From positions 1-64,000 of the forward strand of contig CT868022.1 in assembly GCA_000165425.1 (NCBI GenBank): a stretch of DNA of 64,000 bases, written 5' to 3'. Position 1 is the stretch's first letter. The number at the start of each line of letters is the position of its first letter. Shown here one piece after another: positions 3,973 to 56,203 of this stretch. Position numbers and translations under genes: made by a program. The notes beneath the pieces were generated by a model that saw nothing but the letters and a program-made list of their open reading frames with translations, ran no database searches and was not told the origin of the DNA. Origin of the DNA: Paramecium tetraurelia (Eukaryota).

Positions 3973-5264
3973 TTAATTAATATATTTATTCGATCTATTC
4001 AAAAGAATGTAACTATTCTATTTTTAAAGTTGAATGGAAATTAGAATAATTTGAAATAATATATCTCATTATATGTCCGAGTAGAGATTATGGATTATGT
4101 CTAATGCTAACTAATAAAAATAAAGAAAATTGTGGAATAGAAAATTATAAGAATTTATGTTCATTATTTTAATGAATTATGTACAAAACTAATAGATGAT
4201 CAGAAGGAAAATTTAATGTCGATTAAAGTGTTGCATATTCTGATAAATTAATAGTTGTATTTTATTTTATTTACTTTTTCTATAACTTGATAATAGATAT
4301 ATTTTTTCTAATTTTTAAGATATTTTGGAGTAGAATTCAAATATTAATCGAAAGAATTTCTAATATATGTTATGAAATTAGAAATTCTTTAACCTGATTA
4401 TTACACTAAAACAAACAAATTATAATGCTTTGCAATTTATTTTACACCTCATGACTGAAGTTGCTTTGCAAAATTTCTAAAGAAAACAAAATTATTAAGC
4501 ACAAAAAAAAGATTTATTTTTTTGGAAATGGCCAAAAAATATTTTAATTAGAGTCAAAGAATTATAGAATTAATTAAAATAAAAGAAGTTGGAATCATTA
4601 AAATTAATAAACTATTTAAAAGAATAATTTAATTGAAATAGTTGATATTTTCAGGAGTCACTTTAATACAAAAAAAAAGAAGCTATTGATACCAAAAGAC
4701 CTTGATTCTCAAGCAAATAATTAAAAACTTGCTTTCTGGGACAATAAAGTTAGTTGATGATTATTTCTTTTGTAAAAGGTTATACTAGTGAATCAGTTTT
4801 AAATAAAATTGATTTAAAAAAAGATGGAAAAGAAAAAAATATGATAAAAATTTATTAAAATGCGTCATGCTTAAAACTCATTCCAAATAATAAATCAAAG
4901 AACAGAATTATTTAAAAAATTTGTTAAATTTCAAAAGAATTAGTTTATATCACAAAAAATTTCTTCTTCCTAAGATTTATCCATAATACTAATTATAAAT
5001 GTTCAAAGAATTTTACTTTGAACAAATATAAGCATGAACTTTGGCCTGATCAAGGGGTTTAGAGGGATTATGTTAAGTTGTTGCCATAATGGTGTTTTCG
5101 ACATTGTTGGTTATAGAGTTTTATTCATTTTATATTTAAAATCTAGAATGGATTGTTTAATAGAGGATGTTATTTGACTTGTAATCATAATATGATTATT
5201 TATTTAAATTTTATATTAGGCAATATCTTAACTTCATAAATTATTCAATTAATATAATTCATTT

Positions 5265-8200
5265 TCAAACCAGTTATGAATGAATATTTTTGCTCACTAC
5301 TTCTGTCCAAACTTTCTAAATTTCTATGGGTTATACAGAATTTCTTAATGAAGCTTATTACATGTTTTATTAGAACTTCTAGATCATTAATTATAATGAA
5401 TGAGAAGATTTTTCTCCAGAACAGGCTATTAAGTTGATTAGACTTCTAATTTACGGTGGTAGTTAACAGAACTTATCAATTGTAGTTTATGGATAGCCTG
5501 CTTCTCCATCAGTATAAAATAATATTTAAATTCTAATATTTAAAATTTTTTTACTTATTGAAGCCTTTATATTTTACAATCAATTAGAGAGCCAAATTAA
5601 ATGGAGGGTCAAACGCAGTATTCCCTCCTTTATAAGAAATGCAGCTACTCATCTAAATGTAGTTTGGTTTTTAACATTCTACTACTATTCTTGCATCTCC
5701 ATTAAAGATTATAACGCTAACTTTTGCACAATCAACGTTTTCTAATGACTTTATACAATGTAAAGCTCCATTTTTGGCATTATCCCAATTAACTCCTTAC
5801 ATTGACCCTGAATCATCAAGAATGAGAATGTAATGAATATTCGAAATTGAAATTTGAAAATCTGATTTTTATGAGAATATGATTTCATGGTTTAATGATT
5901 TTTTTAAGTGTTAACAAATTAATTTTCCCAAACCAATATTCCAAACATTTTTCCATTTTACTCTATTTTCATTATTTTTTGCCTCGTTGATATTTTTGAA
6001 ATTCCAGTTTGAATGTGCTTTTTTGACTTCTTTCCAAGTTTTTTATACATTAGTTTCAAGAGTCCTAAGTATGCATTCATCAAGTATTTCTTCACATGTA
6101 TATAATGATGGGCTGTTATGTGATATCAAAATACCATTAATACCTAAAATATATTATAAAATTACCTCTTATTTAATGGCCATTTTAACATTTATGAATA
6201 TGGTTAATAACATCATCATTATCTTCATCACATTTTCTATTACAACATGGACATGTATATTCACAGCCATTCATCTACAATTTTAATTTCTCAAACTCAA
6301 TATCAAGTTAATACTCAGTTTATTTAAACCGTATTTAATCTATACTATCTAATATTAGATCAATTTATTGAATTAATGTTTCAACAAATGACTTTAGATT
6401 GTAAACTTATTGATCTTACGGATCGAATAATTACCAATTAATCTTAAACTAATTATCTACAGGATGGTAGTTGCTAAGCTAGAAGATTTCTTTATATTAG
6501 TCCTCTATAATATCAATTTTATCCTCAATCTTACCTAGAAGACATTAAATAAATAATCTAAAAAGATAATTTTCATAAGATATTTTATCTTTTTATTTGG
6601 CATCTTCAACAAAATATTTAATTGTTTTAACTTCCTTTTGTTGATTTTTGATATATTCAAAGAAAATTTTGGCATTTTTTTTTATGCTTTTTAAGTATAA
6701 ACTTAATTCTTTTCTATATTTATTTGAATACTCAGTTAATGATTAATCTTAAACTTATTTTAGTATGTTCAATATGTACAAATTAATAAATGATTTATGA
6801 TCAGTTGTATAAGATAGTATTTTTTTTTTAAACTGCTCATCTTCAAACATTTTTGCATTTAAACCAATTAATAATTCCTTATCTAATTTTGCTATAAGCT
6901 CAACGTTCGACATGCTTACTTAATTCATTTATTATACAACTTCCTTTTTAGTTCGATCCAAAAATTAGTTTTTTAACAATGTTTATATCTTACTGACTAG
7001 TTCAGTTGCTTTAATACAACTTTATTTTTAATTATCTTAATTAATTTCAGCCTTACATCTAATTAATTCAGTGTAATAATTGTGCTGATGTTTTTATTAT
7101 ATATTTTTTAAATTCCATCTTTAATAGCAAAGGAATCTCCATATAATTAAAATACAATAATAAAAGATACATCTTTCTCCAACATCAGTTAAAATTACAC
7201 CATATTAAGCAAATTAATTATTATATTTAATTTTAATGTTATTTTCAACCTTTTAAATTATACTTGTAATTAAATAAGGATTAAAAGATGAAATATTTTC
7301 ATCTTCTATATTATTTTGATAAGCCTATTTATTGATTGTAGATTTTGAATAGCCAATTTCTTATTTTATTAATTCGTAGAGTTCATTATAAAGCTTTCTC
7401 CAACCATTTTATTATATCATAATTTCATTAAATTGTTTTGGAAATGTTGTTCTGAAGTTATAAGGGACATCATTTTTAGGAGACTTTATGTAGTTAAAAT
7501 CTTCCTAAAACTAATTTTAATTTGGTTTAATTTCAATCTCCGTGTCAATTATTATATATTTTTAAAACTGTTATTATCTAAACTTTTGAGAATTATCCAG
7601 CGCACTACCAACACCATTTAATGGACTATCAACAATTTTGATAACTTTCAAACTTTGATATGCATCTTAAAAAGTTTGGCCAAATTACTTACCTGAGAAA
7701 TCTAATTCTAGAGTATCATTATCGTAAAATTTGAGTGATTTTTTTAATTTTGAAAAAGCTTCAGAAACTTAACTAGATTTAGAACTAATCAGCAATTTAA
7801 GTTGCTACCAACTAGTAGGATTATTTATGATGTTGTCTAATTCTTATTTTAACTCTTCATCGTATTTAATTTGCAAATAGTAAAGTAGAGATAGAAAATT
7901 ATAATAGTAATTTTTTATATTTCTTTGTTTCTCATATTTTTTAAAATAATTTTGAAAATCATTCTAAAATTGATTTTGTAAATAATTCTGAATTTCCTAT
8001 TTTGCAACAACCTAATAGATGCTCTTCTGTGAGTAAAATTATGTCATATCTAAAAATTAGGCTTTAGATTTTTCTAATTTCTCTTCAATTTTTTGTTAAA
8101 AGATGTCAAGATAAGCTAAATTATTCTGCTTTTTATTTATAAATATAAATTGTTCAGCTTCGGAGAATTCTTACTTAAAAAGTTAAAAAATTTACTCTTA

Positions 8201-11200
8201 TTCTTTGCTTTATTCATTGTTAGGATTTTATTTTATTATTTCATTCCTAAAATAGTTTATATATTATTATTCATTTTTAGTTCTTAAAATAAATTGGTTA
8301 GAAATACATTACAAGGCTTTGTATTATGCTTTAATCATTTCCAAATATTATGATTCGGATTACCTTTCAGTTTCACTTATAAATTCGTCCCATTTTTTTT
8401 TAAATTCTGATTCAATTTCTTTATCATTTCCCTGAAATTTCTTTCTCTTTAATTGATCATTTAAAACCTCTTAAATAAAATTATCAATTTAAACATACCC
8501 TTTCTTCTACTAATATTCTCTTTCATACTCTTGAATTAAATTTAATAATTTTAATTTGCAATCTGCTTCCAAAGCTTCTATTAACTTCTTAAGCTTTTCC
8601 AAATACTTTTACATGATTTTTTTCTAAATTTTATTTTCACTTCTAAATGTTTCCATCTTCTCTTCTAAATGAGTTTTAATTTATTAATTTGTTTATTCAA
8701 TTTTATTTTCTTGTTCTTATTTTATCTATCTAATATTTTGAAAAGCAATCTACTATTGACTTTATAACTGTAATTTAGCCTCTTGAATTAAATTCACACC
8801 TACCTATCTTATATCTTAATTATTCCAAAGTTCATCAAAATGTTTTTTCATCACTAAATTTTGTTAATGCTGCATTATTTCACTAAATTCTAATAAATCT
8901 GGCAATTTTTCTATACTTTCCCAATTTCTTTGAACATTTTGAAGAAAATGACTAAAATTATTTAATGAATCTTTTTAATTTTACAGTTTTTAAATAAATT
9001 GTTGTATCATATTAATTCCTTGCCTGTATGCTTCTTCGGAAAATGTGTGATTATTAACTGATTGAATCCAATCTTTCTTTTACCAACCTTTTTAATCTGA
9101 AGCAAATCCTAAACCATAAATGTTGTCTTTTATGTCCAAAATTTCTGCATAATCAATATGTTCTACTTATTACTCCTAATAATTTTCATTCCATTATATA
9201 TTTAAATCTTATGCGACGTCTTTAATTTATTGTCTAAATGGTTCAACATTTTTGTAATTATCATTTTGATTGAAGAACCAACTTAAAAACACTGATAATC
9301 CATTTTTTAAGTGCCCCAAAGTAAAAATGCACATTTCAACCAAACTTTTAAATTATTAATTTATTTCTCCTTTTACATTAATTATAATGATATCACTAAT
9401 TGAAAGCACAAATAATGCAATCTTTTTATCAAATTCTGGATCATTTTAATTTGGATTTTATAAGCCTTCTGTATCTAGGATTAGTATTTAATCAAAATGA
9501 TTTTGAAATTACTCTTCATTTTACACTTACAAGATTTACAAATCAATTCCTTTTGTACATCTCCCAACGCTAGCCCAAAAATGACATCCAAAAATTTTAT
9601 TTAATATAGTGGACTTCCCTGAACTTTATGGACCTAATATACTTATAACTAAGATCTTTTGTTTCTTATTCTATGTTATTTTACTTTCTAAGTCTAATAA
9701 AAATTGAGTATCAATTGACAAAGTATCTCCATCTAGAAATTCTAAGGACTCTCCTTTTCTCATTAATTAATAGAGTATTAACACAGGATCAATCTCTAGA
9801 TAATAATTTTTAGACTTTCTTAAGCCAATTAATTCTCTCCAAAATAATTAAAGACCAACAGTTTTTCGAGAAATATTTTACCTATTATTATCCATTTCTT
9901 ATTTTAATTAAGACATTTTACTCTTTATTTCTTTATTATCTTAACATTACTTTTCTAAACTATTGGGATATTTTTATTTTATCTTTTATTTTTCTTACTT
10001 TAATTTCGCTAATTGATTCGTTTAATTAATCATCATTTTNNNNNNNNNNNNNNNNNNNNNNNNNNNNNNNNNNNNNNNNNNNNNNNNNNNNNNNNNNNNN
10101 NNNNNNNNNNNNNNNNNNNNNNNNNNNNNNNNNNNNNNNNNNNNNNNNNNNNNNNNNNNNNNNNNNNNNNNNNNNNNNNNNNNNNNNNNNNNNNNNNNNN
10201 NNNNNNNNNNNNNNNNNNNNNNNNNNNNNNNNNNNNNNNNNNNNNNNNNNNNNNNNNNNNNNNNNNNNNNNNNNNNNNNNNNNNNNNNNNNNNNNNNNNN
10301 NNNNNNNNNNNNNNNNNNNNNNNNNNNNNNNNNNNNNNNNNNNNNNNNNNNNNNNNNNNNNNNNNNNNNNNNNNNNNNNNNNNNNNNNNNNNNNNNNNNN
10401 NNNNNNNNNNNNNNNNNNNNNNNNNNNNNNNNNNNNNNNNNNNNNNNNNNNNNNNNNNNNNNNNNNNNNNNNNNNNNNNNNNNNNNNNNNNNNNNNNNNN
10501 NNNNNNNNNNNNNNNNNNNNNNNNNNNNNNNNNNNNNNNNNNNNNNNNNNNNNNNNNNNNNNNNNNNNNNNNNNNNNNNNNNNNNNNNNNNNNNNNNNNN
10601 NNNNNATCCGTCGTGACCTTGAATATTATTTGCATATTATGAGTCAAACTATTGTAGTATTAGTAGGAACTATTCTATTTTAAGACTTTTGATTGCTTGA
10701 TTACAATTTTTTTTTAATGGATCAACAATTTAATCAAACAAAAAATTAGAAACATCTTAAGTTTAACTTATTTTAAATTACTTGTTTATTTAGATTTGCA
10801 TAGCTTGATTACGAATATAAATAAATTTAAATGTCCTGACCTTCTATTTTTAAAGTGCTTGGTGGTTTGTTGATTTAGTCTTTCTCTTCTGTATTTCTTA
10901 CAATAATGCAAATTTTAAAATTATATTTTGATTGTTAATCAATTTGCTATAAGATTTTTATCAATTAATCTAAATTTTCTTATAGTTCTCTAGAAGAATC
11001 TATTTAAACTATCCAAAATTTGAAAAATGGAAGTATTTTTATTAAGGTTTCAAAAATAATCTTTCCATGAACATCAGCCACAATAAAGTTTCTTGAATTG
11101 TTGAATTCAAAATCAAACATAATATCAATCGTATTGGAATTCATTTAACAAGTGTCACTAGTTTCAAACTTTTCTCTTTCATAAAAGATGTCGTTTATAA

Positions 11201-13978
11201 GTTCTGTTTTACCTATTTTTTTTTGATTCTCACTTAAAGACATGTTAATTATAGTATAACCTTAATCAAAAAAATAAAATAAATTGCTATTTAAAAGCAA
11301 TAATTCTGTTTTAAACTTGAGCTTATCCAAAATGGGATTTTAATATAGGAAAGGGATTGGAAATTCCTTTGAAAAAAATTTCATTATTATTAGCCTTAAT
11401 TCATCATTTGCATTATTGAAAAAGATCTGAAATACGGATTTTATATTGAAACATCCGATTCTATCTGCTAACTACCTATTTAATTATAAAATTTTATTGG
11501 CCAAAATTAATACATCTTTAGGTGATTCTCCTCTTTTAATTATATTAAAAAGTAATGGCAGTGTTAACTTAAATTTTTATGCATCTGTCATATCTTCAAT
11601 CCAGTTCTCAAGAATCTATTTTTATTTCTATTCAGAGTATTCTGACAATGATATGTTAAAGTCCTCTAAAGGAATATTCATTTATTTTGGATAATATTAT
11701 TGACTTGTTTTAATTCTTAAATACTCAATCGAAAGCATTACATATGATGGTTTTAAAATTCTGAACCATTCTTCATATAACTATTCATCCTGTTAAAATA
11801 ATTCTTCAGTTAATTATAACAATTTATTCTCTAAGTTTTTACATAAATAATATTGCAATTAAACAAATTTATTTATTTTTGAAAAATGAACTTTATTTTT
11901 TAAACAACGAAAAATAAATGGGAAATCATAACATTAATTTATAAAGAGCTACCAAATGCATTTTTCCACTTTTTAAAATTGGGATTAGTCTATTTTTTAA
12001 AATAGGTTAAAAATGGCATAAATAGTCCATTTTACTGCAGTGAGGGAAATATTCTAACTTTTATTGACCATGATTAAATATCCTAAAATATTTTGTGGAG
12101 AAATTTCTGATAAGAATACTAATAGATTGTAAATCTTCTGAAAGGGCAATTTATTTTATTCTAAAGATAGATTTCAAACTTAAAAGACATTCATAAAATC
12201 TTAACTTGATTATTGGGACGTCAAATAATTTAGTAGCTCTTAAGCCAATTTTGAAAGTGTTTAATTTGGAAATATTTTATGGAAAATATTACTATGTTAA
12301 TCTAATATAGCCTAGCCCCTTTCGCAAAAAAAGAATATAGATTTCTGGTCCGTAATTTATTAGAGATAAATTTATTGGCTTCTAAAACCATGGATGCCCT
12401 TAAAAGGCTTCCATAACTTTCAAGTAATTTTTTTAATAGCAAGTAATTATTTTCTTCATTAGGATATTCGGCATATATTATTCTCAGCAAATTTTAAAAT
12501 AATAAAAAATCTAAATTATTTTTACTAACAGTTATTAATTATTTAATTTCCTTTTCTATTGCACATACTGCTTCTAAGAATGATGATTTTTTATCCTAGG
12601 TGATTATATGTAATGTATTGAACAAGTTTTCATTTTGATTATATATCCAAACAAGATTTGTAATTAGTTGAACAATTTAATCGTTTTATTGTATAATGTC
12701 TGATTTATAAAACCTTAATGAGCGAATTATTCTCGAATACTCTTAAAATTTGAGATAATCTTTAAGTACTATTTAAGTAAGTATTTATTTCTTTTCTTGA
12801 TAGGCTTTGAAATTATTATCCATAATTTTAGTAAATTCTTTCGAAATTTTTAAAGATATTTCATCATCTATTTCTTTAACAAAATAACAAATTCTTTGAA
12901 TTACAAATAAATATATCGTATCTTAGATATTATCTTTTTATTTTTTGAAATACCTATCTATTAATATCTGCTTTCTATCAGTTCCTATTTTAGGTAAACT
13001 TTCCAATTAATTTTTGAGATCGGCTTATAAATTATATTTGAAACAATACTTTTTCCAATAATAAAAGACAGTTTATACATATAAGTCATTAATATTATCA
13101 TTTACATTTTCAATATTGTTAACATAAGATATAACTTAAGAGAATTAGCATTATTTTGTTGGAATCTAAATTAATGAGCTTATAAATTATTCTAAAGTTG
13201 ATCTGATGTTTATAACGTCTTTACTAAGATTCATTAATAAAACTTCGTATCTTTAGTTTTTTTATAAGAATGCTTATAAATTACTGTCCTCCTTAGAAAT
13301 CACTGTCAATTGTAAATTTTGTAAATATTCCACAAAAGTATGATAATTTATTGGATCATCCTTTTTTAAATTCTCAAAATAATAAGATATTTCGTATAAT
13401 TATTTTTATAATAAGGATCCTATTAATTGTTCAAGTGTTTTTGATTCATCTTCTGTAAATATTGAATTACAATAGAATAGCTCTAATAAAATTTTCAAGA
13501 TCTCTATTTGAGATAAATCATTTTTATCTAAATGATAGTCTAGTAAATCAAAAACTAATAAAGACTTAATTTTAAGTTTTATTAATTATGGTAAATTGGT
13601 AACAAGTTCATCTGGAATCTTATTCTATCTTCTATATTCAGGCATCTTTATCTTATCTAAAATAGATTCATAATTATAAGTTTTTCTGTCTTAATCGTAT
13701 ACCTATTAATAATCAATTACTTTCATTTTTGAAAAATTCCCTTAAAGCAAATATCCTCCTTATCTTACGAATTCATAGTCTCTAAAATATGTATTTAGTG
13801 CCTTAATTACTTCTTCCTTGTCAGGATTACTTAATTATTATATTAGTAGATTCAAATCTTCTAAAATATAATTGCTCTCAACTAGATATCCTTATGCTAT
13901 CTCTTAAAAAATTTCCAATATCTTTTGCTTGATATTTTGATTATTTAAGGTTAGTTCAAAATTAACCTCTAAATGCAT
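5265..13978 (-). CDS. Giant VLIG/GVIN-type (very large inducible GTPase-like) protein with C-terminal von Willebrand factor A domain, ~2,900 aa, spanning the gap at 10040-10605
   Basis: G1 ILGPQSSGKSTILNKIFGCHFWASVGRCTKG (~9550-9640), G3 ILDTEGL and FDKKIALFVLSISDIIIINVKG. Cys/His cluster GCEYTCPCCNRKC..NHIHKCQNGH (~6175-6270). vWA MIDAS ILDDSGSM..T..TDG (5500-5830). The frame is consistent from the ATG at 13978 to the TGA at 5265, with two 22-nt introns (6144-6165 and ~5535-5556). Confidence 0.85.
10040..10605. other. Assembly gap (other gaps: 19052-19201, 36911-37035, 38857-38901, 54995-55807)
   Basis: Runs of N. Confidence 1.
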
Positions 13979-16900
13979 TTTTTTCTTGAGATTTTATTCT
14001 ATTAAGAATTTTATTATTAATAGCTACTTGAAATTTACATGAATATAAATAATTAAAATAGAATAAAAATTTAATCGAAGATAATGATTATATATATAAT
14101 TAAAAGCTACAAAGAATACTATTATTCGATTATAGTCAGGATATGTAGCTCACATTTTCAGAAGTAATGAAAGAATATTAAATGTATAAATTTAATCCCC
14201 TCTAACTTTTCTAACTTGTGGTTTGAACATACTAAGCCTATAATATTTAAGTTGTTAATGAAAGCTAGAATAGACAAGAAATCTTGATATTCTCCAAATT
14301 AAATTTTTAACATAAAAGGACGCTGCTTGCATAATTAAACCTAAGAGGAATCCATTAAGAGATTTCTTTTTACTTATATAATTGTATATCTCCTTAGAAT
14401 CCTTTTAGAATTATATTATAATTCTTCCACTTATTTTTTTATGGATTTGCTTATCAAAATTATGAGCAATTACAATACATATAATAAATCGTATCTTTCA
14501 CTATAGGTTTGGTCACCATTTAAATGGGATTACTTTTTAATAGCTAGCAGTTTGTAAGAAATAAATATATGGTTTAAAATCTCTATGGGGATTATTAAAA
14601 TAATTCATACCTCTCCAATTTTATGTATTCTAATCAATTATCGAATAGTATTGACAATAAAGTTTCAGATAAGATAATCTAGTAGTTATTGGATTAGTAT
14701 GCATATCTTGAAAACTTCTGTCTATAAACTAAGCTCATAGACAAATGGGTTTAACTCAGTAAGAATCTATTTGTTGTAACTATTTACTTTTAAAATAACA
14801 TGTACTACTATATAAATGTAATTTATATATTCTTTAATCTTTTATCAATATTAAACTGTTTATGAATTTCAAAAAACTTCAAACCAAAAGTCTAATTTTT
14901 CTTGTTCTTAAAGATTATAATCTTAATATTGTATTTGTTTGAAAAATGGTTGATATTTGTTATTCAGAATGATTATATTGATTGAGTTTGATTTATTTAT
15001 GTTGTGACGCTACTAATTATTAGAATTTGGCTGGATTAATAAATTATCAAATATTTAGTTTCATAAAGTTAATTTTATATGAACATGATTTTCATATTAC
15101 TTCATATAATAAGAATAATCATAAAAAGGTGAACAATATTGAATTTTATAGGTTTAAATAACCACAAAATTAGGCAGCCTTTGCATACAAAATTTATACA
15201 AGTGATTCCTTTAAGTAATAATTATTTTTGTTATTCAACCAACTTTAATATAGATTTGTAAATAAAACTCGCACTAATTTGGTTTATTTATTAATAATAT
15301 ATGATAGAGTTTTTCAGATACATCAACAAATAATATTATTACAATTTCTATGGGAATAAGGGGAGTTGAAAATAATAATAGAAGGAATAATAAGTTTTCA
15401 TATTTATGTAGATTCATAATAAGACTAGGTTTGTTAAATAGTATTTTGGCCTATGTTACTAATATAATCAAATTATTTATAAGTTTACAAGATTCTAATT
15501 CTGAAAAGCTTATTAAATTTATCTTGAGTATTTATGATCTCAACTTCAAATTATGACCATATAATGGGGAGTTGATGCAAGAATCAAATATAATTCTGCA
15601 GCATTCTATAATTTAAAATCATTAGAAAAATTGGATGTATCAATTTTAATTATAAATATATTAAATATTATTAATTATTGGAATAGTATAAAATGTAATA
15701 TATAATATTGCATAAAAAATATTAAAATACTGTTATTTGAATTTCATTTCTAATACTCTAATTAAACAATCTACTTTTGAACTCGTAATGATCTTTTTAA
15801 ATGTATCCTTACCTGTATATAGAATTATATATTATTACCATGTTTTCAGAATATTAATAGAAATTCAATGCAATTAGTTTTTTACTTTCCTTCTTAATCG
15901 TCATAATCATTTTTATAATTCTATCGACTTCAAAGTTATTAAACCTTAGCTAACTTCTAACTAACATTTTTGAGGATTATTTTATTTTTTATATGGTTAT
16001 TAATTATGTTTGATAGAATTTTAAATATAAATAAATTTACATAAAGAAAATTCAATATATATATATGTATGTATAGCAGTTATCTGCATGAATAGTAAAC
16101 CAGAGATACTATTTTTTGCTCAAGATAATAATAACAACTTGTTTTGAGATTGCAAACGATACACTTTATAAAATAACAAGATTTATATCGTATAAAAAAT
16201 CATTCTTATGTTTCTAGGTGATGTTTGCTATCATTCTAACTAAATATATGGGAGACTATTATTAGATACATTAAACACTGAGTATCTAAGAATGATTATA
16301 GGATTTAATCATGCTCCTTCTTCTTGAAATTTTACTATGATCTCAAGATGATTCCCACCCCTCTAATAAAAATTTTAATTTGTTTGCCCACTTAAGCTTT
16401 GGTGAGAGTTTAATAAAATTGAATGAAAACCTTTAGAAGCAAAAAACTAAGGTAACTTTGAAAATAAATCTATCTTCAGAACGTTTGTAAAAGTAAATTT
16501 CAAATCTTACAAGGCTATCTTCTTGTTAAAGTCCTAAATTTATTGTAATTATACCATTATGATAAATTTGTCTAAACTTGGAAATATAAACTTTATTCTT
16601 TCATACTCCAAATTCATAAATTAAAAATCTTCTAAAATTGTAATCTAGAAAGGAATTCTTAATTCTATTAAAATACAACTAATAGAATTTAGGGATTTTA
16701 TTGTTTTTTCAATAGAAACTAGAACAATGTAATTTAATTCATCTCATTTTTTCTGTTTAAAATTCAATTAAAATGATAAATTAATTTCATTCTAATTACA
16801 TATTGATTGATTAGAGTATTATTTTATTGTATGCACTAATAAGTTCTATAACTTAAGATAAAAAATAATATAATATTTTTCAATTAAAATCTTAGCAGTA

Positions 16901-17649: not shown

Positions 17650-19051
17650 TCAGAATAATTTTGTCATGCATTTACGTATTTAGATTTGTCTTGAACTACT
17701 ATCCCAAGTAAGGAGATAGTTTCCATCCTAGCTTAATTACCCATAATTGTCACAACTTCCAAATTAAATTAGTTACTCGATTACAAACTCACCCTTCTCT
17801 AAACTCCTCATTACATTAACACTCTTTCCATTCTTAATCACTAAAAGGCCCTTAGCATTTTAGTATTAAATTGGGAAGAAATTACATTCATCACATGAGC
17901 CACACGATACAGGATAATCTAGAATTTTCCTATACTCATTATGGTTGAGATCAAATTAATACAATTACAAGTTTTCTTGGAGACAAGGTAGGAATATGAA
18001 TTATTCATCATTAATAAAACACAATCTTACGCCATATTGATCTAATGGAATCTTTTATACAACTTGCCAAATTGTTGTGAAACTTGTTCTTTCTATAACA
18101 AAGATTTAATTATTTTTAGAACAAGAAATCAGTTTACTCTCTTTTTAATTTAGACTTAATGAAACTACCTCACTTTAATGTTCTGTAATTACTTATTGGC
18201 ATGAAAATCCATTATATTTTTTCCAAAATTTGATTGTTGTATCTGCACTACAAGATATTATGAGATTGTCATCTTTGTTTATTACAATACAAAAAATCCA
18301 ATCTCTATGAGCTTCCAATTTTTATACACAATTCCATTATTTATCTTGATACTATTACCATATAATAATGATTTCATCTTTACTTCCAGATAAAAAATGG
18401 TTAGTTTTTTTCATGAAATTTAATATACTAATATCAGATTTATGCTCGATTAATAATTAGATTTGATTCAATTTTCCTTTATCATGTTCGAATACTTTAA
18501 TTATTTCTCTACAACCTAATACAACAAATTATCCATCACTATTAAATGCTATTGCATAACACCTTTTATCTTGCTTTATACAATTATCTTTAAGTAGTTT
18601 AAACTTTAATTATTATTTTTTTTGTTTGGACTATTCTTATACGATTGGTATTGTACTTAAAATTTGAGATTCTTGTTAATTCACACTTGATTATTAATTC
18701 TTCATTTAAATTTTTAAACTATTTGCTATTTTTTAAAGTTTTTCAGATGATGATTTGAATTTTTAAAGTAAGTTTTCCTGAAATACTTCTATTTAGATAA
18801 AACCAATTACTATTTGGTTTACTTTGTTAAGTTCTAATTCAGATAGATATTCGAAATCAATGTTGATAAAAGGGTAAAACGATTTTCTAATGCTTTCAAG
18901 AGCCGTATTGCAATCTGAAATAATTACCTAAACATCTTCAATACATTTCATTTGTTTTAACATCCATTAATTTAAAATTTTTTGGGGTATTAATTTTGTC
19001 AAATGATTAGAATGGAAGGGCAATAGCTAATCTGCTAGTTTGATAAATGCG
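17650..19051 (-). CDS. WD40-repeat protein of the Paramecium expanded family, with N-terminal coiled coil; 5' end lost in the gap
   Basis: WD repeats such as FLSGSKDEIIIIW and HRDWIFCIVINKDDNLIISCSADTTIKFW, and the family C-terminus YGQLSQDGNYLLTWDSSSRQIQIRK...*. Confidence 0.85.
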
Positions 19052-19658
19052 NNNNNNNNNNNNNNNNNNNNNNNNNNNNNNNNNNNNNNNNNNNNNNNNN
19101 NNNNNNNNNNNNNNNNNNNNNNNNNNNNNNNNNNNNNNNNNNNNNNNNNNNNNNNNNNNNNNNNNNNNNNNNNNNNNNNNNNNNNNNNNNNNNNNNNNNN
19201 NAGTAATTTACATGATCCTTAGTTTAAGATTTTATTTCAATATTATAAATTAAGACAAAAAGTAATGAGAACTTAAATATTCTATTTATGCTACAACATT
19301 CACTCATTAGAATTATATCACTATTTCTTAAAATTACATAACAAATATTTACCATTTTCTTATTATAAATTCAAATCTACTTGTAAACTGTGAATCTATA
19401 TGAAAATATTGAAATTATTATCAATATATTATAGTTGGATCTCATTATCAGATATTATATATATGAATAAAAAGGTTTTTGACTTATTTCCTTATATTTA
19501 TAATTATTAAACAATAATTATGAAGGATAAGGAATTTTAATCAAGTATTTGAATGCTTTATAATAATTTATTTATTAACAATAATAAACTTTAAACGGAA
19601 TAATACTTTATAATAGAATTTAATATTTAAAATTGACCAAACCTATGAATTGGATATC

Positions 19659-21959
19659 TCATAATATGGAAATCAAGATGATAATAATTGTACTGATTAA
19701 TTAACCGTAGCATTATCCACATCCAATATTGTTATCCCATCTAGCGATTCCTCCAGTGGAATTATAGCAGTTTTGTGAAGTTCGAGTATTAAGGTCTGTA
19801 GTTTTATCACATACATTTCCGTTTAAGTTACAAAATTAGGCTTCATAATTTTAATTAGGTTAATTAAGATAGTAATCACAACTAGAGGTTAAATTGTATA
19901 GAGTAGTGCAATTAAACGTATAGCATGTGCCAGAATCCCAATAACAAGTGCGTAACATAGTATTGCATAAGGTTGAGTTTAATATCTTTTTACAATCGCT
20001 AGCACCTGAACAACTGGAAGAATTTTGATTCCACTAACACAAACCATCAGCACCTAAAGAACCAAAACATTAATAATATTCTTAATAATCATTGCACTAT
20101 TATAAGGATGATTAACATTAGCCTGTTTTAGTCGATCCAGCACAAAGAATCGATTGGCTTAAGCATTCTTGTTATGTATTTCCCAATAAGGATGAACAAA
20201 ATGATTAAGTTGAATTGGAGACACTTTAGCCTGTACAATTTTATGTTGTTTGATTCCAATAGCAATTTTTGTTCAATATACAAGAACCTTGAATTGTTAA
20301 TAAGCTACAATTCTGAATTTGACATGTGCTTGTCTTATAATCCCAATAACAATTAGGGAAGGATTATATGCATTCAATCTACTGACTAAAGTCTTGGCAT
20401 TCACACTTAGATTTGACATTTAAAAGATGTGAAAATTTACACGGTAAACAAAACCCCTTTTAGATAGTACTTCGTGGTTGACTCCAATGATGAGTTCTTC
20501 CAGATTATATGTAGCATGAATTTATATCATAATTTATTGAATTATAAAAGATATTGCACTTTTTTGTGTCTTAATTCCAAGCACAAATGTTGATATTAGC
20601 TTCATTAATGGAACTATAAACATAAGAGCAACTACTTTGAGTGTAATAATCTTCGCATTTTTTAATTTAACACACTTATTTTTACCAAATACAAGTTCTA
20701 TAAAATTAATTACATAACTCAAATGTCTAAAAATCACTACACTATGAAACACTCTAGCAAGCGGAATTTGAATATGTACAATATCCATCCTTCCCTATAG
20801 AATTATAGCAAATGCTAGGTTAGATAGGTTTGTTGTTGAAGAGCTCTGAACATGTACTTAAGCCTGATTAAGATAAACAATGACCATCTTTGGAACCTGG
20901 GCAATAAATGGAGGATGCAATACAGGTAGAGTAATTCTTTTCTAATATTTCCTCGCAATTATCATATGGTTGACATAGAGAAGGAATTATAAGTGCATTC
21001 CAAAAGCATCCCTAAATTTATGCACATTTTTATTATGATAAATACTCTGAGCATTATAATTTGATGCATTAATCATTGGCCCATTTACAATTTGGTGAAT
21101 TATTGCATTCGGATTACAAGAGTAGTTGAGTACAATCACAATCATTAGGAAAATGATATTAATTTAGATTACATTATGCACAAATACCAAATAATGGTTC
21201 AATTGGTACCCACCTATAATGATAATTGGTATTAGAAGCACAAGTGTATTCAGTTAATTGATCAGCTGTTCCATTTGTGCAAGTCTGACCATTCCAAAAG
21301 CATGGCTGAGTTAAAGCACCACTCAAAGGAGTTGTTTGAACAAATCTACATGTATTTTAAGATGTAAATTATGAACATTTTTAACTTACACAACTTGTAC
21401 CAGACCAATAGCAAGCGTAATTTAACCATTTTTTATTACATATACTTTCATATTAAATTTCTGCGCATTGACTCACAACCTTACAAGATGATACACTCCA
21501 AAAGCACATTCCTTCAGTTGTCAAAGTATATATATCCTATGTATCCTACATGGCTGTGCATTAACTTTATGATAATCCTTGGCAATAATCTCCTGAGTTA
21601 ATACATTTATTATCTATATTTGATTATACACACTTTGAATTAGCTCCTTAGCATGATTATCCACTTTTTAATGTTATGTGTTCGCAAGTATCAAAAGGAA
21701 AGCAATTAATTTATTAACTAGATTCTTAGTAGTAACATAGATGTTGTGAATTTTGACATTGCTATTAATTTAATTATTCACATTTCACTTTTCCACAATA
21801 GCCCGCCTATGATGTCGTACTTATCCATTAGCAATTCCAATTATTACATTCTACTTAGCTCATAATCTATTAGCATGCACAATACACATTCGGAATAGCT
21901 TTATCCTAACCAAAGACTGAAAATCCACAAAGCAAAAAAAGAAATGAAATTTTGAGCAT
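19659..21959 (-). CDS. Cysteine-rich surface protein (mini-antigen/surface antigen-like) with signal peptide and probable GPI-anchor signal
   Basis: MLKISFLFLLCGFSVFG signal peptide, periodic CxW/CxY cysteine repeats in about three larger units, and hydrophobic tail CGQCYGQLISTIIIILISIL*. Confidence 0.88.
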
Positions 21960-22718: not shown

Positions 22719-23753
22719 ATGTATTAATAATACAATCAAAAAAACTAAGTAAAATTTTGTTATGAATTACTCTCAGAATTAACAATCCACCAAAAACAAG
22801 TGTGCTATGCTATTACTTTCAATCAAAATAAATAATTAGTCTTAGTCTGTTGTGATCTAAATATTAAAGTTTATCAATTCAATGATGGATATTTAAAGTT
22901 AATATCAATACTATCAAAAAGTCGATTTACTATCACAGTCCTGAGTTTCTTTAAGAACAACAGAAAGTGTTAATTTTTATCAGGTTCGTGTGATAGTTTT
23001 ATAGAAGTTAGATCAATAACATAATTAAGAAGTCAAAAATACACTTAGAAATTGGATTCACATAAAAATGGCATTAATTGTTTAGTTATTGGTTAGGATT
23101 AAAATATGTTTTTATCTGGCTGTGTAGGTTAAGCGATTAAACTATGGAGTTGCTTCTAATAAAACTAACGTAGTTGTCAATGGTCCTGCTAATAGACAAT
23201 TACAGATCATACTAATTCTGTCTATACATTAGATATTAATTCAAAATAAAATAAAGCAGTATCATGTGGATATGATGACACTATGTTAATTATGGATATA
23301 ATAAAAAACATGGAAACTTATTAATTGGTTTTGAAATAAAAGATTAAATTACCAAACTTTAGTTATCGAATCCTATTCATAAATGATTCAGATTTCATAT
23401 TTCAATCCTATTCTGCAAAGTTTCTTCAATTGTTCCAATAAGATTAAAATGAAAAATATTTCATAACATATTCTCTACCTGTTTAGTGTAAATCCTAGCC
23501 TTGCAATATATTTTTCTAGCCCTAATTTATTTAGTCAAAAGGTTATTTTGTTTGTAAAAATAGTTAAAATCTTAATTTTGTTTATCATAATCCTGTTAAT
23601 AATGAACTTGTATTATTATATTCGATATATTTTGATAATTATGAATAATATGGGTCATTAAGTGAAGATGGTGAATATTTAATTACTTGGAATTAGAAAT
23701 TAGAACAAATAGAAATAAGAAAGTATAAACTTATTGATGATAAAAATAATTGA
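22719..23753 (+). CDS. WD40-repeat protein (propeller only, 344 aa)
   Basis: Intronless code-6 ORF with CYAITFNQN, FLSGSCDSFIEV, HTNSVYTLDINSKQNKAVSCGYD and YGSLSEDGEYLITWN. Confidence 0.88.
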
Positions 23754-24643
23754 TTTTAATTATTCATGTATACATAAATTTTATATAAAAATAGTAAATT
23801 ATTAATATAATTGTTTAAAATTGAATTTGCAATAATTTAGAATCATACTATTCCACAAGATTTCTTTCCGATTAATAAAAATAATGAATAAAATAATTCA
23901 TATTTAGTTTCTGATATATTATTTAAGTAAATTTTGATTCTAAATATTATCAGAGATTATATAACGTTATAAAAATTCATTACTCCAGTATTTAAAATTA
24001 ATTTCACTATTACTTTCTATCTAATTAAACTTCAGAATTATCAAGATTTCATTTTATACCTTAATCTATTAAATGATGCAACATTTTTGGAACCCTTGAT
24101 GAAAATTTTGAACATTAACTTTTTATTTGGTTCTTATAAATCTAAGAAAAATAATGTTTCAATGTTGTTAAATATCACTTTTGTGTTTTAAGGAAAATAA
24201 TCTTTTGTTTATTTTCTTAAACAAACGCAGCTACACTATTTAGCACAATATCCTAAGTAATAAACCAAAAATATTTAACAATTAACCTATTTAAATATAT
24301 TTTACTGTTATTCCATTAACTTTATGTCTATAATTCCAAATATTATTATAAGATGTTGCTTCATTAATACATAATCATTCTTGTAATCCTTAAGGAAATT
24401 TTTGAACATTTTTCTTCAATCTTAAATTGGCCTAGATAAAAAATTTTTATTCATAATTTTATTACAGTTAGTGTGATCTTAATGATAATTTCTAGTCCTA
24501 GAATAATGTAAGGGATAAAAATTATGATGAGGATTCATTTATATATAATACTTTGCTTCAGATTAATATCATTGTATTCTCTTATAATACCTTAAATTGG
24601 ACAATAAAATTTGGATTTTATCATATTATAATAGAATTTAATA

Positions 24644-26917
24644 ATGAATTCGTCAAATGATATATGGCGCTGTCAAGATCATAATGAACTTGTTGTATTT
24701 CTTGCAAGATCCATTTCAGAGTAAAAAACAATAAGACTTTGCCATAAATGTGTAATTGACAAGAAAAAGGATTTAACATTAAAGAACTTAATCTTAATAG
24801 ATGATGCAAAGAAATACCTTTAAGAAACAAAGGCTGGAATATTAGAAGAAAGAGAATCACTTAATAAATATAACATAGGAATATTAAATGATATTAAGGA
24901 TAGCATAGGAAATCTTTCATTGAATTTCAATCTATTAATTGATAAAATTAAAGTAAATATAGACTCTGGGATAAAGACTATAGAAGAATCTTCAATAAAA
25001 TTCTAAAAAGAATTAAATGATATTTCATTCGATCAAATAGAAAATACTAATATGGAAAAAAGCTCAATTTTATATTAATTGATTAATCAAAAAGAATTAT
25101 ACGATATAATTTAAAGTCAAATAGGTAATTTATTCAATATATAACTTTTGTAAAAGTGTCAACAATTAGTGTAAAGTTTAAAAGTTGGAGAATAAAGTGA
25201 GACTTTAAATTAACTATCCAACATAGGGTCATTTATTGATTAATAGACCTAGATAAAGGCAGATTGGATATGTGATAAGCATGAACAAGAAATAGTTTTT
25301 GCTGATTTATCCTAATAAAAAAGTATTCAAAATAGATTAGCTTGTCTTGAATGTGTGCCTGAATATCAGATTTAATACACAAATTTAGGATAGTTGTAAT
25401 AAAAGTGGTAGAAGTATACTGAATAAGCATTGAAACTATTTAATTTTTAGCAAAGCAATACTTAAAGTAAACAAACATAATTAATTCTATAACTTAAAGA
25501 GTTTCGAGAGATATTTTTGAAGATATTTGAGTAATTAATCTAATCAATTTAAAACAAAGTCGCATTAGAAAATAATGATCTCCATTATCATCATAAACTA
25601 TTTTAAAAGACATGGCAAGCATTAAGTAAAAATGATCTAATTAATATTGTTGAACTTCTGAGTTCGTAAAATAGATTAGCTCTGGTTAATCAACTGATTG
25701 AATAAGAATTTTAATCCAAAGATTAAGCTATTTATGCAACAATTTATGCTCAAATGTAACAACTCTAAAATTTGATAAACTCTACTTGTCTATAAGTAAT
25801 TTCTTCAAATATGAAATCCTTTGCTACAAATGAAAAAGTAAATTAAAATAAAATTAATATTGAATCCTAAATTTAAAAATCGCTATCCTTATCATCTTTA
25901 ATTCTCACTCTTTCTTTATAACTTAATAAATAAATCACACCATAAATTTTCAAACCATTTACCTATGAGATAGTCTCCTAAATCTCAGAAAGTATTAAAT
26001 GTAAAGCATTTGCATTTAATAATGATTCATCTATTTTAATTGCAGGTCAAGATGATGGATCAATAAAGGTTTTTGAGTTTAATTAAGGAAAATTAAAAGA
26101 AGTTTAATTACTTAAAGAACATTCAAATTATATTCAAAGTTTATATTTCATGTAAAGATCTTCTTCATTTATATCTGCTGGTAATGATAAATAGATAATA
26201 GTCTGGAGGATGAATAATTAGAAAGAATGGCAGAGTTATCAAAAATTAGAAGGTCACACTGATAGAATTAATTGTTTAATAATGAATAATAAAGAAGATT
26301 GCATCATATCTGGTAGTAATGATACAACTATTAAGTTTTGGGTTTAAGAGAATTAGTAATGGAAATGCAATTAGACATTATTAGATCATAAAGGCTATAT
26401 TAGATGTTTATCATTGAATATATCATAGAATATGTTGATATCATGTGGTCAGGATAAATTATTATTAATAATCTAGTAAAATAATAATAATAAAATTTGG
26501 AATACAATCTAAAAAATATCTGTTGAAAGATAGGGTTATAGTTTATGCTTTATAACTGATTAAATGTTTACATTTCAACCTTACTCAATAAATATAATGC
26601 ATATCTATTAATTAAACACAAAAAGTTAATAATTTATTAAAATAGAACAAGAAGTAAGCATTAATTCAGGTTCTGGTTGCTCATAGTTTTTCCCTTAAAA
26701 ATTTATTAAAGAGAAATAAATTCTACTAAACAAAAATGGATAAAACGTCAATTTAATTAGACTTCATGGTAATGGTTAATTCAAAACAGAATAATCTATT
26801 CAAAATAAGGGCGATTGTTGTGGATTATTTGGCATTATTTCAAATGATGGAAGCTATTTAGTAACGTACGAGAGTTAGAGTAAAGAGATAAAAGTAAGAA
26901 TATACAGAGAAAAATGA
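24644..26917 (+). CDS. WD40-repeat protein with two tandem N-terminal Cys/His (B-box-like) plus coiled-coil modules, 757 aa
   Basis: WRCQDH..RLCHKC and WICDKH..RLACLEC modules, each followed by Q/E/K-rich helical sequence. WD repeats GHTDRINCLIMNNKEDCIISGSNDTTIKFW and DHKGYIRCLSLN. Length 2274 nt, no introns needed. Confidence 0.88.
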
Positions 26918-36477: not shown

Positions 36478-37660
36478 TATTTTTCTTGTTTTTTATATTA
36501 TTTATAACTTACTAGCATAAAAGAATAAATAAACTTAGATTTTGTTAGAAACTATATAGAAAAATACAAATTCATGTAATTTATTATTATGTTTATAATA
36601 AAATACAACCTCATATTTAAAGTGTTTTAATCTGCTCTTTACAATATTTCGATATTTTTCAATCTTACGGCTATGAAAACAACATTATATTATGGGAATT
36701 TTAATGAAAGCGAGTGTTCAAGCATAGAAAAATACAGCGCTATGTTTTTAAATTTCTTATCTTGCTCAGATAGATTAATATGGTGAGAGTGCCAAGCTTT
36801 TTTATGCATTTGAATTACTTGCATAACTATAGTTATGATATTGAGAGATTTATATTGAATTATAAAACGACAAATATTCACTTCCATTTTGGATTATCTT
36901 ATATGCTTAGNNNNNNNNNNNNNNNNNNNNNNNNNNNNNNNNNNNNNNNNNNNNNNNNNNNNNNNNNNNNNNNNNNNNNNNNNNNNNNNNNNNNNNNNNN
37001 NNNNNNNNNNNNNNNNNNNNNNNNNNNNNNNNNNNTTTAAGAAGTATAAGAATAAATGTTTATTAGCAATATATTTATACAATACCGTGTCAAAGATGAA
37101 TATAATACATTATTATTTATCATTATACATAGAATTTCAATTTGTTTTTAATCCTTAAATTTTTTAATATCTATATTATTAATTGCTTTAAAAACATTGA
37201 TAATTCTTAACCAACTTTAAAATTAATTTTATAGTAAAATGTTAAGACATCTCAACAATTTTGTGCTGGTGTGTTTTGTTTTTGAACTGCTGAATTAATT
37301 CACAATAATTTTTCTAATAATAGAATTCTTACTGATTGTTTATGAATAACTTCCACAATTTGATTTAGAATACTCACACTAAATGATTTTTTACTTCTAT
37401 CTAAAAGTATTCTATCTTAATTTTAAGGATATTGCATAATATATATTAAACTAATTATCATATTACAAACATAATTTATAAATTTGCAAAAATATTTATG
37501 ATTCGACAAACTTAAGGTAAATTACAAACAATATATCATTAGAATCTAAGTAGTTTGAATATACCTTTCTATTCTATTTTATTATCACAAATGACCTTTC
37601 AAATCATTCTAATAATATAAATTTTAACAAAAGTAAATTTTCTAATTGAAAATTAAGTTG

Positions 37661-54373: not shown

Positions 54374-56203
54374 TCAGTTTCTTTGGGATGATTTTGGTTC
54401 TTCTTATTTTTATACTTAAATTTAACTACAGAATAAGATTGTAATTACTTTTTTGATGATATTTACATTAACATAGCTGTTCTATGTGGTAATTTTAGTT
54501 ATAGATTAGTTTGTGCAGGCTTTGAGAATAAAATAAATGATTACTTTTTTTACTTTTTATTACAATCCTTTAATTTCATCTTTGATTTCATCAACCTTTG
54601 CTAATAATTCTTCATTTTATTTTTCATTAGATATAGATCTTTCCCTTTAAGTCAGTTGACTTATTGTTAATCTAGAATGATTTATTATAGAATTGATATT
54701 CTAATTTTAAGATGAATAATGTTATGAATTATTAATAGGGTTACTAATGGTAGACATATTATTTTATTAGTGAACTTAAAAGCTGTTATTTTAAATGAAG
54801 TTATGAGTTGATTAACTTATTTCCTTGGATTATGGCTGATATTATGATGTATCAACATCTGTGTTAATCTTTTAATTTGCTGGTATGAATATGGTTTCAC
54901 ATTCTAGCTATCTATCATTAGATTATTGTTGAAGTTCTTCTTGAATTTGATCATTATGTTAAAGGAAGCAATTAACTTGATTTTCGAATCTTTCNNNNNN
55001 NNNNNNNNNNNNNNNNNNNNNNNNNNNNNNNNNNNNNNNNNNNNNNNNNNNNNNNNNNNNNNNNNNNNNNNNNNNNNNNNNNNNNNNNNNNNNNNNNNNN
55101 NNNNNNNNNNNNNNNNNNNNNNNNNNNNNNNNNNNNNNNNNNNNNNNNNNNNNNNNNNNNNNNNNNNNNNNNNNNNNNNNNNNNNNNNNNNNNNNNNNNN
55201 NNNNNNNNNNNNNNNNNNNNNNNNNNNNNNNNNNNNNNNNNNNNNNNNNNNNNNNNNNNNNNNNNNNNNNNNNNNNNNNNNNNNNNNNNNNNNNNNNNNN
55301 NNNNNNNNNNNNNNNNNNNNNNNNNNNNNNNNNNNNNNNNNNNNNNNNNNNNNNNNNNNNNNNNNNNNNNNNNNNNNNNNNNNNNNNNNNNNNNNNNNNN
55401 NNNNNNNNNNNNNNNNNNNNNNNNNNNNNNNNNNNNNNNNNNNNNNNNNNNNNNNNNNNNNNNNNNNNNNNNNNNNNNNNNNNNNNNNNNNNNNNNNNNN
55501 NNNNNNNNNNNNNNNNNNNNNNNNNNNNNNNNNNNNNNNNNNNNNNNNNNNNNNNNNNNNNNNNNNNNNNNNNNNNNNNNNNNNNNNNNNNNNNNNNNNN
55601 NNNNNNNNNNNNNNNNNNNNNNNNNNNNNNNNNNNNNNNNNNNNNNNNNNNNNNNNNNNNNNNNNNNNNNNNNNNNNNNNNNNNNNNNNNNNNNNNNNNN
55701 NNNNNNNNNNNNNNNNNNNNNNNNNNNNNNNNNNNNNNNNNNNNNNNNNNNNNNNNNNNNNNNNNNNNNNNNNNNNNNNNNNNNNNNNNNNNNNNNNNNN
55801 NNNNNNNCCAATTTCTCTAGCTTGTGAGATTTTCATTTGCAATTTAAAAATTACCCTTAATATTGTAGGCATTCTGTAAACGTTCCAAAGAAGTATTATG
55901 TTCAATGGAGTTATTTAATTTATAAGAGAGGGATCTATCTCTATCCTATTAAAAAATGTTGCTTTTTCTGGGGAGGGAGATGTTTTGCTTTGCTCGATCC
56001 GAATTATTGCTCAATGATTGATTCAGTTATTCTCTTGGATTATTGGGTGGAACCAAGGCCAACTGAAATAAACTTCGTTTTAGAGTTGACATGGATGATT
56101 GATTGGAATGTTGATTTAACATATCTACAACATTTAGATATCTAATACTTTAGGCAGCAGCATAAAACATAGTTTTTTTCGGATTTGAACTTAAAGTATT
56201 CAT
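54374..56203 (-). CDS. Hypothetical protein spanning the gap at 54995-55807
   Basis: MNTLSSNPKKTMFYAAAQ|..., with open frames on both sides of the gap and a Q-rich C-terminus ending SQRN*. Continuity across the gap is inferred. Confidence 0.6.

Follow-up and report, generated by a model that had tools for sequence, protein, structure and literature searches.

A giant GTPase gene of probable VLIG type in Paramecium tetraurelia: corrected limits, domain layout and possible roles

To our knowledge, the VLIG family of giant GTPases (GVIN1, URGCP and relatives, covered by the Pfam families PF25683 and PF25496) is, apart from human GVIN1, almost unstudied, and we know of no interferon system in ciliates. 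According to a recent preprint (bioRxiv 10.1101/2025.03.24.645074), human GVIN1 is a functional antibacterial coat protein, not a pseudogene, and coats Burkholderia thailandensis in the cytosol. Here we analysed 64,000 nucleotides (nt) of the Paramecium tetraurelia contig CT868022.1 (positions 1 to 64,000, the window), which carry on the minus strand a gene that an initial annotation had described as a giant GTPase of the animal GVIN1/URGCP type ending in a von Willebrand factor A (vWA) domain. Like the animal VLIGs, its product has the switch I form SxGRCT[KR]G and the G3 motif DTEGL, probably a second P-loop-type domain ahead of the G domain, a long, presumably helical C-terminal part with the same Cys/His module, giant size and a multi-copy family. 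Unlike them, it scores only 124 bits with PF25683 (365-447 in six of the seven animals scanned, 221 in a lamprey protein), has the P-loop GPQSSGKS in place of the animal G[IL]QS[ST]GKS, and combines a Paramecium-specific, predicted all-alpha N-terminus of about 542-560 amino acids (aa) with a C-terminal vWA domain, which the scanned vertebrate proteins lack.

Three further groups offer comparison. With RHD3/Sey1p, atlastin and the GBPs the protein shares the broad G-domain class and, with RHD3, an identical P-loop; unlike these proteins it has other switch I and G3 forms, extra domains and many paralogs, with no transmembrane hairpin seen and no GBP Pfam match at E < 0.001. Protist, sponge and metagenome relatives (Oopsacas minuta P0069; P0102, P0107 and P0016) show the same order of parts, from a URGCP-like domain through a G domain (P-loop GPQSSGKS), the stalk and the Cys/His module to a vWA-type domain, and Amoebophrya P0106 is a VLIG-like relative without a vWA match. 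These relatives differ from the Paramecium protein in that many carry VWA_4 (PF25106) where Paramecium has VWA_2, and that beyond the G core no more than 25-30% of residues are identical. The best sequence matches of the vWA domain among solved structures are an archaeal ArnB-type vWA (PDB 8s05, titled ArnAB, the subunit of chain A being unchecked) and 5a8j, titled ‘VWA2’. Common to these are DxSGS, GGxT and TDG; the vWA domain alone is shared (E 2e-7) and the contexts are unrelated.

The G domain matched the Pfam family URGCP_GTPase (PF25683) with 123.9 bits (cutoff 55), the match beginning at profile position 56 because the start of the domain lies in an assembly gap. Reading the minus strand with the ciliate code, we recovered every motif listed in the initial annotation; about 1,365 residues precede the P-loop, in good agreement with the ~1,400 aa given for the N-terminus. 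In the public protein P0001, which covers the part after the gap, switch I reads SVGRCTKG and G3 reads LDTEGL; seven animal VLIGs show S[AV]GRCT[KR]G and DTEGL, as compared with GRSKTTNG and DLEGTDG in one RHD3 protein. From this comparison we read the switch I and G3 forms as probably family-defining. The proposed searches with hidden Markov models (HMMs) thus bore out the GTPase and vWA assignments, with URGCP_GTPase and VWA_2 above their cutoffs, and the GBP model (PF02263) gave no match for P0001 at E up to 0.001. By sequence, the closest solved G domains were those of Sey1p (E 3.5e-11) and GBP2 (E 2.5e-6), followed by weaker matches to GBP1 and GBP5, which agrees with the claimed relation to GBP/atlastin. 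A tree of 112 rows, provisional as it was built without Sey1, atlastin and GBP sequences, united the 43 Paramecium G domains in one clade (support 100), with the metagenome protein P0102 (3,190 aa, with vWA) and Amoebophrya P0106 as nearest outgroups; the animal and fungal G domains formed a separate clade (support 98-99), a further difference from the animal VLIGs. Altogether, as to identity and architecture, we assign the protein with high confidence to the GBP/atlastin/Sey1-like dynamin superfamily and, within it, to the VLIG (GVIN/URGCP) branch.

The locus had been pictured as one open reading frame (ORF) across the gap. This held for the gene after correction and not for the letters of the window, which have a G+C content of about 0.23, read open only under the ciliate code (table 6) and do not form a single open frame: there are frameshifts near 12352 and near 10800, an in-frame TGA at 12176-12174 and a gap of 566 N. 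The letters were checked by aligning contigs of four public runs, from four studies, over 5200-14100. At eight sites in 12091-12351, 1, 1, 1, 5, 2, 4, 1 and 2 letters were left out in all four runs, as was 1 letter at 10015, and 3 letters at a ninth site, 12307, were left out in two of the four. A 4,303-nt contig of run X1 aligned with 3,350 letters to 3,377 window letters over 10620-13996, so that each of the 27 gap letters is a surplus letter of the window (20 fall in 11279-13996, 7 in 10620-11130). Contigs of two runs (X1 and X13) bridged the gap, both with 362 letters between 10039 and 10620; the 566 N and 14 flanking letters stand for only these 362 real letters. Where contig joints showed long skips (sides of 21-59 letters), repeats or paralogs were assumed. 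The reference differs from the run contigs by at least 28 extra letters and several substitutions (12091-12352, 10620-11130 and 10007-10015). Modulo 3, the 20 letters leave 2, the 7 letters leave 1 and the 362 letters, minus two split-codon letters, leave 0, matching the three frame changes required. Introns were also considered as the cause of the upstream frame changes; candidate GT..AG introns at the junctions did not fit.

With the nine sites removed, 13978..11279 reads as 893 codons with no stop and is collinear with residues 1-896 of P. octaurelia P0002 (62.5% identity, 5 gaps). P0002 (1,858 aa) spans the upstream pieces, the gap and the first 600 post-gap residues in one protein, and P. 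octaurelia P0075 (2,783 aa) is collinear with the entire stretch from 13978 to 5268. Since the orthologues are collinear and the run contigs correct the letters, the apparent frameshifts and the in-frame TGA are errors of the reference assembly, not gene decay. Judged by these alignments, the locus is one Paramecium gene across the gap, as had been claimed. The opposite outcome named beforehand, a start or stop inside the gap that splits the frame, is not forced by the gap, and the bridging contigs keep the frame.

From ATG to stop the corrected gene measures 8,424 nt, that is 2,807 codons and TGA. Spliced at both 22-nt introns, the window yields P0001 letter for letter. This P. tetraurelia macronuclear protein (1,574 aa, automatically named ‘VLIG-type G domain-containing protein’ in UniProt) is 100% identical to the post-gap frame, which means that the post-gap part was already a public gene model; a second model, P0121 (354 aa), is identical to the first 343 residues of the gene. 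The public models are split and truncated because of the assembly gap and the 28 extra reference letters, and the true protein has about 2,807 aa, not 1,574. New here are the correct limits of the gene; its VLIG kind is known but barely studied. No other copy of the family was found in the window by tblastn with eight Paramecium proteins, matches being restricted to 5268-13978. Four more N gaps lie in the window (19052-19201, 36911-37035, 38857-38901 and 54995-55807), and gene models beside them may be similarly truncated.

The gene is transcribed. An X1 contig over 5497-9477 lacks both introns at full depth and the other three runs retain them; X1 is labelled ‘DNA?’ and is not on record as RNA, and we identified it as spliced RNA solely from the absence of both introns. 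Three X1 contigs (5226-5526, 5497-9477 and 9448-13996, the last spanning the gap) overlap by 30 letters each and reach from 18 nt upstream of the ATG to about 40 nt beyond the stop. They are consistent with one mRNA of about 8.7 kb, although contigs cannot prove a single transcript.

The N-terminal half, called uncharacterised in the initial annotation, was modelled as had been proposed there, and the predictions comprised an all-alpha domain (N1) and a G-fold domain. The description thus remained apt for N1, which matches no known family, and not for the last ~160 residues, which form a second G-fold domain, probably URGCP-like. Among 1.84 billion representative proteins, five matched N1; two were traced to Paramecium (P0121 and P0002), and the other three (P0122 and two short fragments) are without species trace. 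The N1 profile matched none of 77 non-Paramecium relatives, and on these searches N1 appears to be a Paramecium-only domain. Nothing in Pfam exceeded its cutoff for N1 (RVE6 stayed below, 17.2 versus 27 bits), Foldseek against the PDB gave no convincing neighbour (best E 0.19, template modelling score ~0.13), and a wide VIA-align search reached at best Z 6.7, with short helical bundles covering residues 5-80 or 460-542 only. The modelled domain has no assigned known fold, from which novelty of the fold does not follow.

For the first G-fold domain, the Foldseek list consisted almost entirely of GTPases, and VIA-align returned GBP2 (Z 8.9, 160 residues aligned), GBP1 (8.5), SMG9 (8.4), Sey1p (8.1) and atlastin-1 (8.1). 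G293 and K294 of the IGKT motif and D339 of ADVHG were invariant in 29 family sequences. A profile made from Paramecium sequences only matched animal URGCP regions weakly (E 0.0055, probability 6.7%); widened with 46 non-Paramecium relatives, it matched the animal PF25496 region over 178 columns with an hhalign probability of 90.7% (E 1.2e-6), and the P-loop-like and ‘HG’ motifs lined up with animal URGCP. Remote homology to the animal URGCP domain is likely on this evidence, not proven. Two results speak against it: the Z values all stay below 9, which is middling by the tool's own scale, and the Pfam URGCP model PF25496 did not match the window pieces directly at E up to 0.1.

Downstream of the G domain follows the stalk. 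A profile of residues 1661-2080 of P0075 matched 0 of the 77 non-Paramecium relatives and one of residues 2081-2470 matched 3. The Cys/His cluster, with the sequence GCEYTCPCCNRKCDEDNDDVINHIHKCQNGHQIRG at 6268-6142, was in line with the animal type claimed for it: its profile matched animal relatives in hhalign with a probability of 91.7% (E 8e-7), and of 16 animal and fungal relatives, 10 carry the motif CxxxCPxCxxxC...H..H...H(R/Q)P, while the remaining six are fungal or end soon after the G domain. A Paramecium HMM for this region matched 27 of the 77 non-Paramecium relatives. The module probably binds zinc and holds the vWA domain. A metal-ion-dependent adhesion site (MIDAS) comprises DxSxS and, likewise at the metal site, one Thr and one Asp residue. 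The vWA domain of P0001 exceeds the VWA_2 cutoff by a borderline margin (29.6 versus 27 bits), with higher scores in the relatives P0075 (35.1), P0004 (45.9) and P0006 (46.1). In the match to PDB 8s05_A (E 2.1e-7), DDSGS, GGNTAF and YTDGEA align with DTSGS, GGQT and TDG, and LDxSxSM, GGxxTxF and YTDG are kept in the family consensus. As the initial annotation had stated, the MIDAS-type residues are in place, and metal binding is predicted.

Paralogs, whose number had been asked for, were counted from protein database models only. We found 43 Paramecium models, 8 of P. tetraurelia, 11 of P. octaurelia, 10 of P. sonneborni, 8 of P. pentaurelia and 6 of P. primaurelia, and the 112-row tree shows six or more deep subfamilies that are older than the aurelia species. 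According to the precomputed Pfam list, 33 of the 43 carry a vWA family, most of the others being truncated models, and 17 of the 77 non-Paramecium relatives carry a vWA-type family, including the sponge O. minuta (VWA_4). Given these counts, the fusion of VLIG and vWA is old and widespread; the fusion that had been put forward as noteworthy is present, and it is the norm in Paramecium and not special to this gene. A tight clade consists of O. minuta P0069 and P0115 together with ~40 ENA proteins, which have GPQSSGKS, an upstream GWNP[IV]GKS P-loop and often a C-terminal VWA_4; given the sponge in that clade, animals may hold two VLIG-like lineages. The sponge member P0115 is fused to formin domains. 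One subfamily (P0103, P0104, P0105 and P0101) is named ‘VWFA domain-containing’, has no PF25683 in the precomputed list and shows G-domain branches of up to 2.0, so its G domain may be degenerate; of all tetraurelia-octaurelia pairs found, its own is nevertheless the most conserved (90%). For P. sonneborni P0007 the precomputed list gives PF26772, a family listed for several animal VLIGs as well.

P0001 is 65% identical to P. octaurelia P0075, which is probably its syntenic orthologue since the contigs of P0075 and P0125 are both 424,913 long. The neighbouring ORF at 58577-63262 (-), of 1,562 aa, is 93% identical to P0125, which suggests conserved synteny between the two species there. Identity to P0075 differed by part, with 90% in the G core, 51% in stalk residues 421-800 and 66% in the vWA domain; other tetraurelia-octaurelia pairs of the family showed 76-90%. 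For one comparator gene and proteins only, this pattern fits a constrained GTPase engine with fast-changing surfaces. The initial annotation had contrasted its reading with a single-copy, conserved gene; the present one is multi-copy and fast-diverging (65% versus 93% for the neighbour).

Like the solved GBPs, atlastin and Sey1p, the G domain would probably dimerise on GTP, and this dimerisation would probably drive the long stalks into an oligomer or coat, with the vWA domain gripping an acidic residue of a target or adaptor through a metal ion. We regard such an assembly-type mechanism, built on analogy, as evenly poised. The role we favour, in parallel to the human GVIN1 coat, would be surveillance of intracellular bacteria, symbionts or their vacuoles, because of the many diverging paralogs and the fast change outside the G core; an immune or conflict role is nevertheless put forward tentatively, at clearly less than even chances. 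Our literature searches found no study of the VLIG family in ciliates, and a paper on conflict systems (PMC3417536) makes no mention of RHD3, GB1, GBP or dynamin. As the overall explanation, an intact, transcribed VLIG giant GTPase with this mechanism and role is the one we lean towards with moderate confidence.

It is extremely improbable that the frameshifts and the TGA are real and mark a decaying N-terminal pseudogene followed by a shorter functional gene with its start beyond the gap. What such decay would explain, namely the window letters themselves and the split public models (P0121 with 354 aa and P0001 with 1,574 aa), is outweighed by four of four runs from four studies without the offending letters, a corrected frame that is open and collinear with the orthologues, the exact compensation of the three frame changes, and the X1 RNA contig, which crosses the gap from the G domain and reaches 18 nt beyond the ATG (13978) on the upstream side. 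For 11279-13978 the pseudogene is refuted; a stop inside the 362-letter fill or the 7-letter region at 10620-11130, both unread here, would tell against an intact gene and is unlikely. A GTPase of the RHD3/Sey1 type, which fuses the endoplasmic reticulum, with added domains also has a low probability, even though several results that weigh against the VLIG assignment would be expected from it. The Pfam model RHD3_GTPase (PF05879) scored 51.2 bits, above its cutoff of 42.4 (MMR_HSR1 22.3), and yet this match overlaps that of PF25683 and loses to it, the latter scoring 2.4 times higher. The P-loop GPQSSGKS is identical to that of plant RHD3 and Sey1p is the best sequence match in the PDB, whereas switch I and G3 have the VLIG form, and the probably URGCP-like domain upstream and the Cys/His module downstream are common to animal VLIGs. 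In the consulted part of the eggNOG table from a P. primaurelia infection transcriptome study (PMC13134042), large ‘GTP binding’ proteins, whose membership in the present family was not checked, are tagged ‘RHD3’, at least five of the rows listed bearing this tag and none ‘VLIG’. A quick tree of 36 rows, likewise provisional and built without Sey1, atlastin and GBP sequences, placed its one RHD3 protein on a branch of 3.9 outside all 34 VLIG-like rows and not among them, the grouping that the initial annotation had named as contrary to its claim, and the 43 paralogous Paramecium models are not one conserved copy. A C-terminal transmembrane hairpin defines the RHD3/Sey1 ER-fusion GTPases; a simple hydropathy scan revealed no paired transmembrane-like segments, the best 19-residue Kyte-Doolittle mean being 1.64 (a G-domain strand and a conserved stalk segment).

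With the VLIG assignment retained, the role remains to be weighed. A housekeeping scaffold of giant GTPase type would act in membrane traffic, at the cortex or in organelle dynamics and use its vWA domain for docking; the many copies would be left over from whole-genome duplications, and it would have no part in defence. We give it about the same chances as the defence role, clearly less than even. Transcription in run X1, the strongly constrained G core (90% identity to P0075), a neighbourhood of unrelated ordinary genes and the membrane fusogens Sey1p and atlastin among the closest solved relatives would all suit it, and intracellular vWA domains are in general docking modules. Most Paramecium genes have many paralogs after whole-genome duplications, so copy number alone says little for surveillance. 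The argument for the immune role, which the initial annotation had proposed as that of a candidate cell-autonomous effector and which we hold doubtful, draws on the analogy with the family and on the rate of change relative to one neighbouring gene, the fast divergence being the only indirect hint. Over the part that it covers, P. octaurelia P0002 shows 72% identity, and the fast divergence could equally reflect relaxed constraint or mis-assigned orthology. Against mere housekeeping stand the 65% identity to the probable syntenic orthologue, compared with 93% for one neighbouring lineage-specific gene, the subfamilies older than the aurelia species and, according to the preprint (bioRxiv 10.1101/2025.03.24.645074), the defensive action of the sole VLIG member seen with a published cell-biological function.

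A wider version of the surveillance role, which we consider unlikely, would place the origin of giant-GTPase coats, as a defence against intracellular bacteria, before that of animals. In the ancestor, the VLIG protein would already have had tandem G domains, stalk, Cys/His module and vWA domain, a layout still seen in Paramecium, other alveolates and sponges, and vertebrates would have lost the vWA domain. In Paramecium, the expanded and fast-changing family might then form a coat on, or tag, Holospora, Caedibacter, Megaera or the vacuoles of symbionts, with N1 in an effector or regulatory function and the vWA MIDAS as target grip. Paramecium is a tractable model with RNA interference by feeding and well-known intracellular bacteria. 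A large, expressed and fast-diverging VLIG family in it would offer a cheap test of whether giant-GTPase defence predates animals, as well as a route to the roles of the Cys/His module and the second G-like domain.

Table 1. Features of the gene and of the reference sequence in the window
Feature	Position	Strand	Remarks
Whole gene	5265..13978	(-)	ATG 13978-13976, TGA 5267-5265; three exons 13978-6166, 6143-5555, 5532-5265
N1, predicted all-alpha domain, residues 1-542	12353..13978	(-)	AlphaFold2 model: predicted local distance difference test (pLDDT) 85.3, predicted template modelling score 0.78, 31 helices
Assembly-error cluster, 20 extra letters at 9 sites	12091..12352	.	False frameshift and false TGA 12176-12174
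Helical region between N1 and first G-fold domain	11373..12089	(-)	Model residues 1-240 predicted helical; model mean pLDDT 86.7
First G-fold domain, probably URGCP-like	10890..11372	(-)	P-loop-like IGKT 11216-11205; conserved ADVHG; hhalign and structure matches
Assembly gap, 566 N	10040..10605	.	Bridging contigs: 362 letters between 10039 and 10620, frame kept
VLIG-type G domain	9263..10018	(-)	P-loop GPQSSGKS 9634-9611, switch I GRCTKG 9565-9548, G3 DTEGL 9475-9461; N-terminal ~55 profile positions in gap
Stalk, ~1,000 aa	6272..9262	(-)	Least conserved part; helical by composition, not by model; no Pfam family above cutoff
Cys/His module, C-x4-CPxC-x3-C ... HxH ... C...H	6142..6268	(-)	Interrupted by intron 1; P0001 residues 1256-1290
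Intron 1, 22 nt, GTA..TAG	6144..6165	(-)	Missing from run X1 contig, kept in other three runs; required to reproduce P0001
C-terminal vWA domain	5268..5844	(-)	DDSGS 5817-5803, GGNTAF 5628-5611, YTDGEA 5516-5499
Intron 2, 22 nt, GTA..TAG	5533..5554	(-)	Missing from run X1 contig, kept in other three runs; required to reproduce P0001

Elsewhere in the window, the ORF at 58577-63262 used for the rate comparison has many hydrophobic stretches and no Pfam family, and one of its relatives is named ‘PAS domain-containing’ by the source. A stretch of 10 kb contains three ORFs with WD40 repeats, distributed over both strands, at 17653-18963 (-), 22719-23750 (+) and 24353-26914 (+), which look like local paralogs. 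The ORF at 19662-21959 (-) encodes 766 aa that are rich in Cys, hydrophobic at both ends and without a Pfam match (E up to 1e-5); the Cys residues are regularly spaced, presumably as in Paramecium surface antigens.

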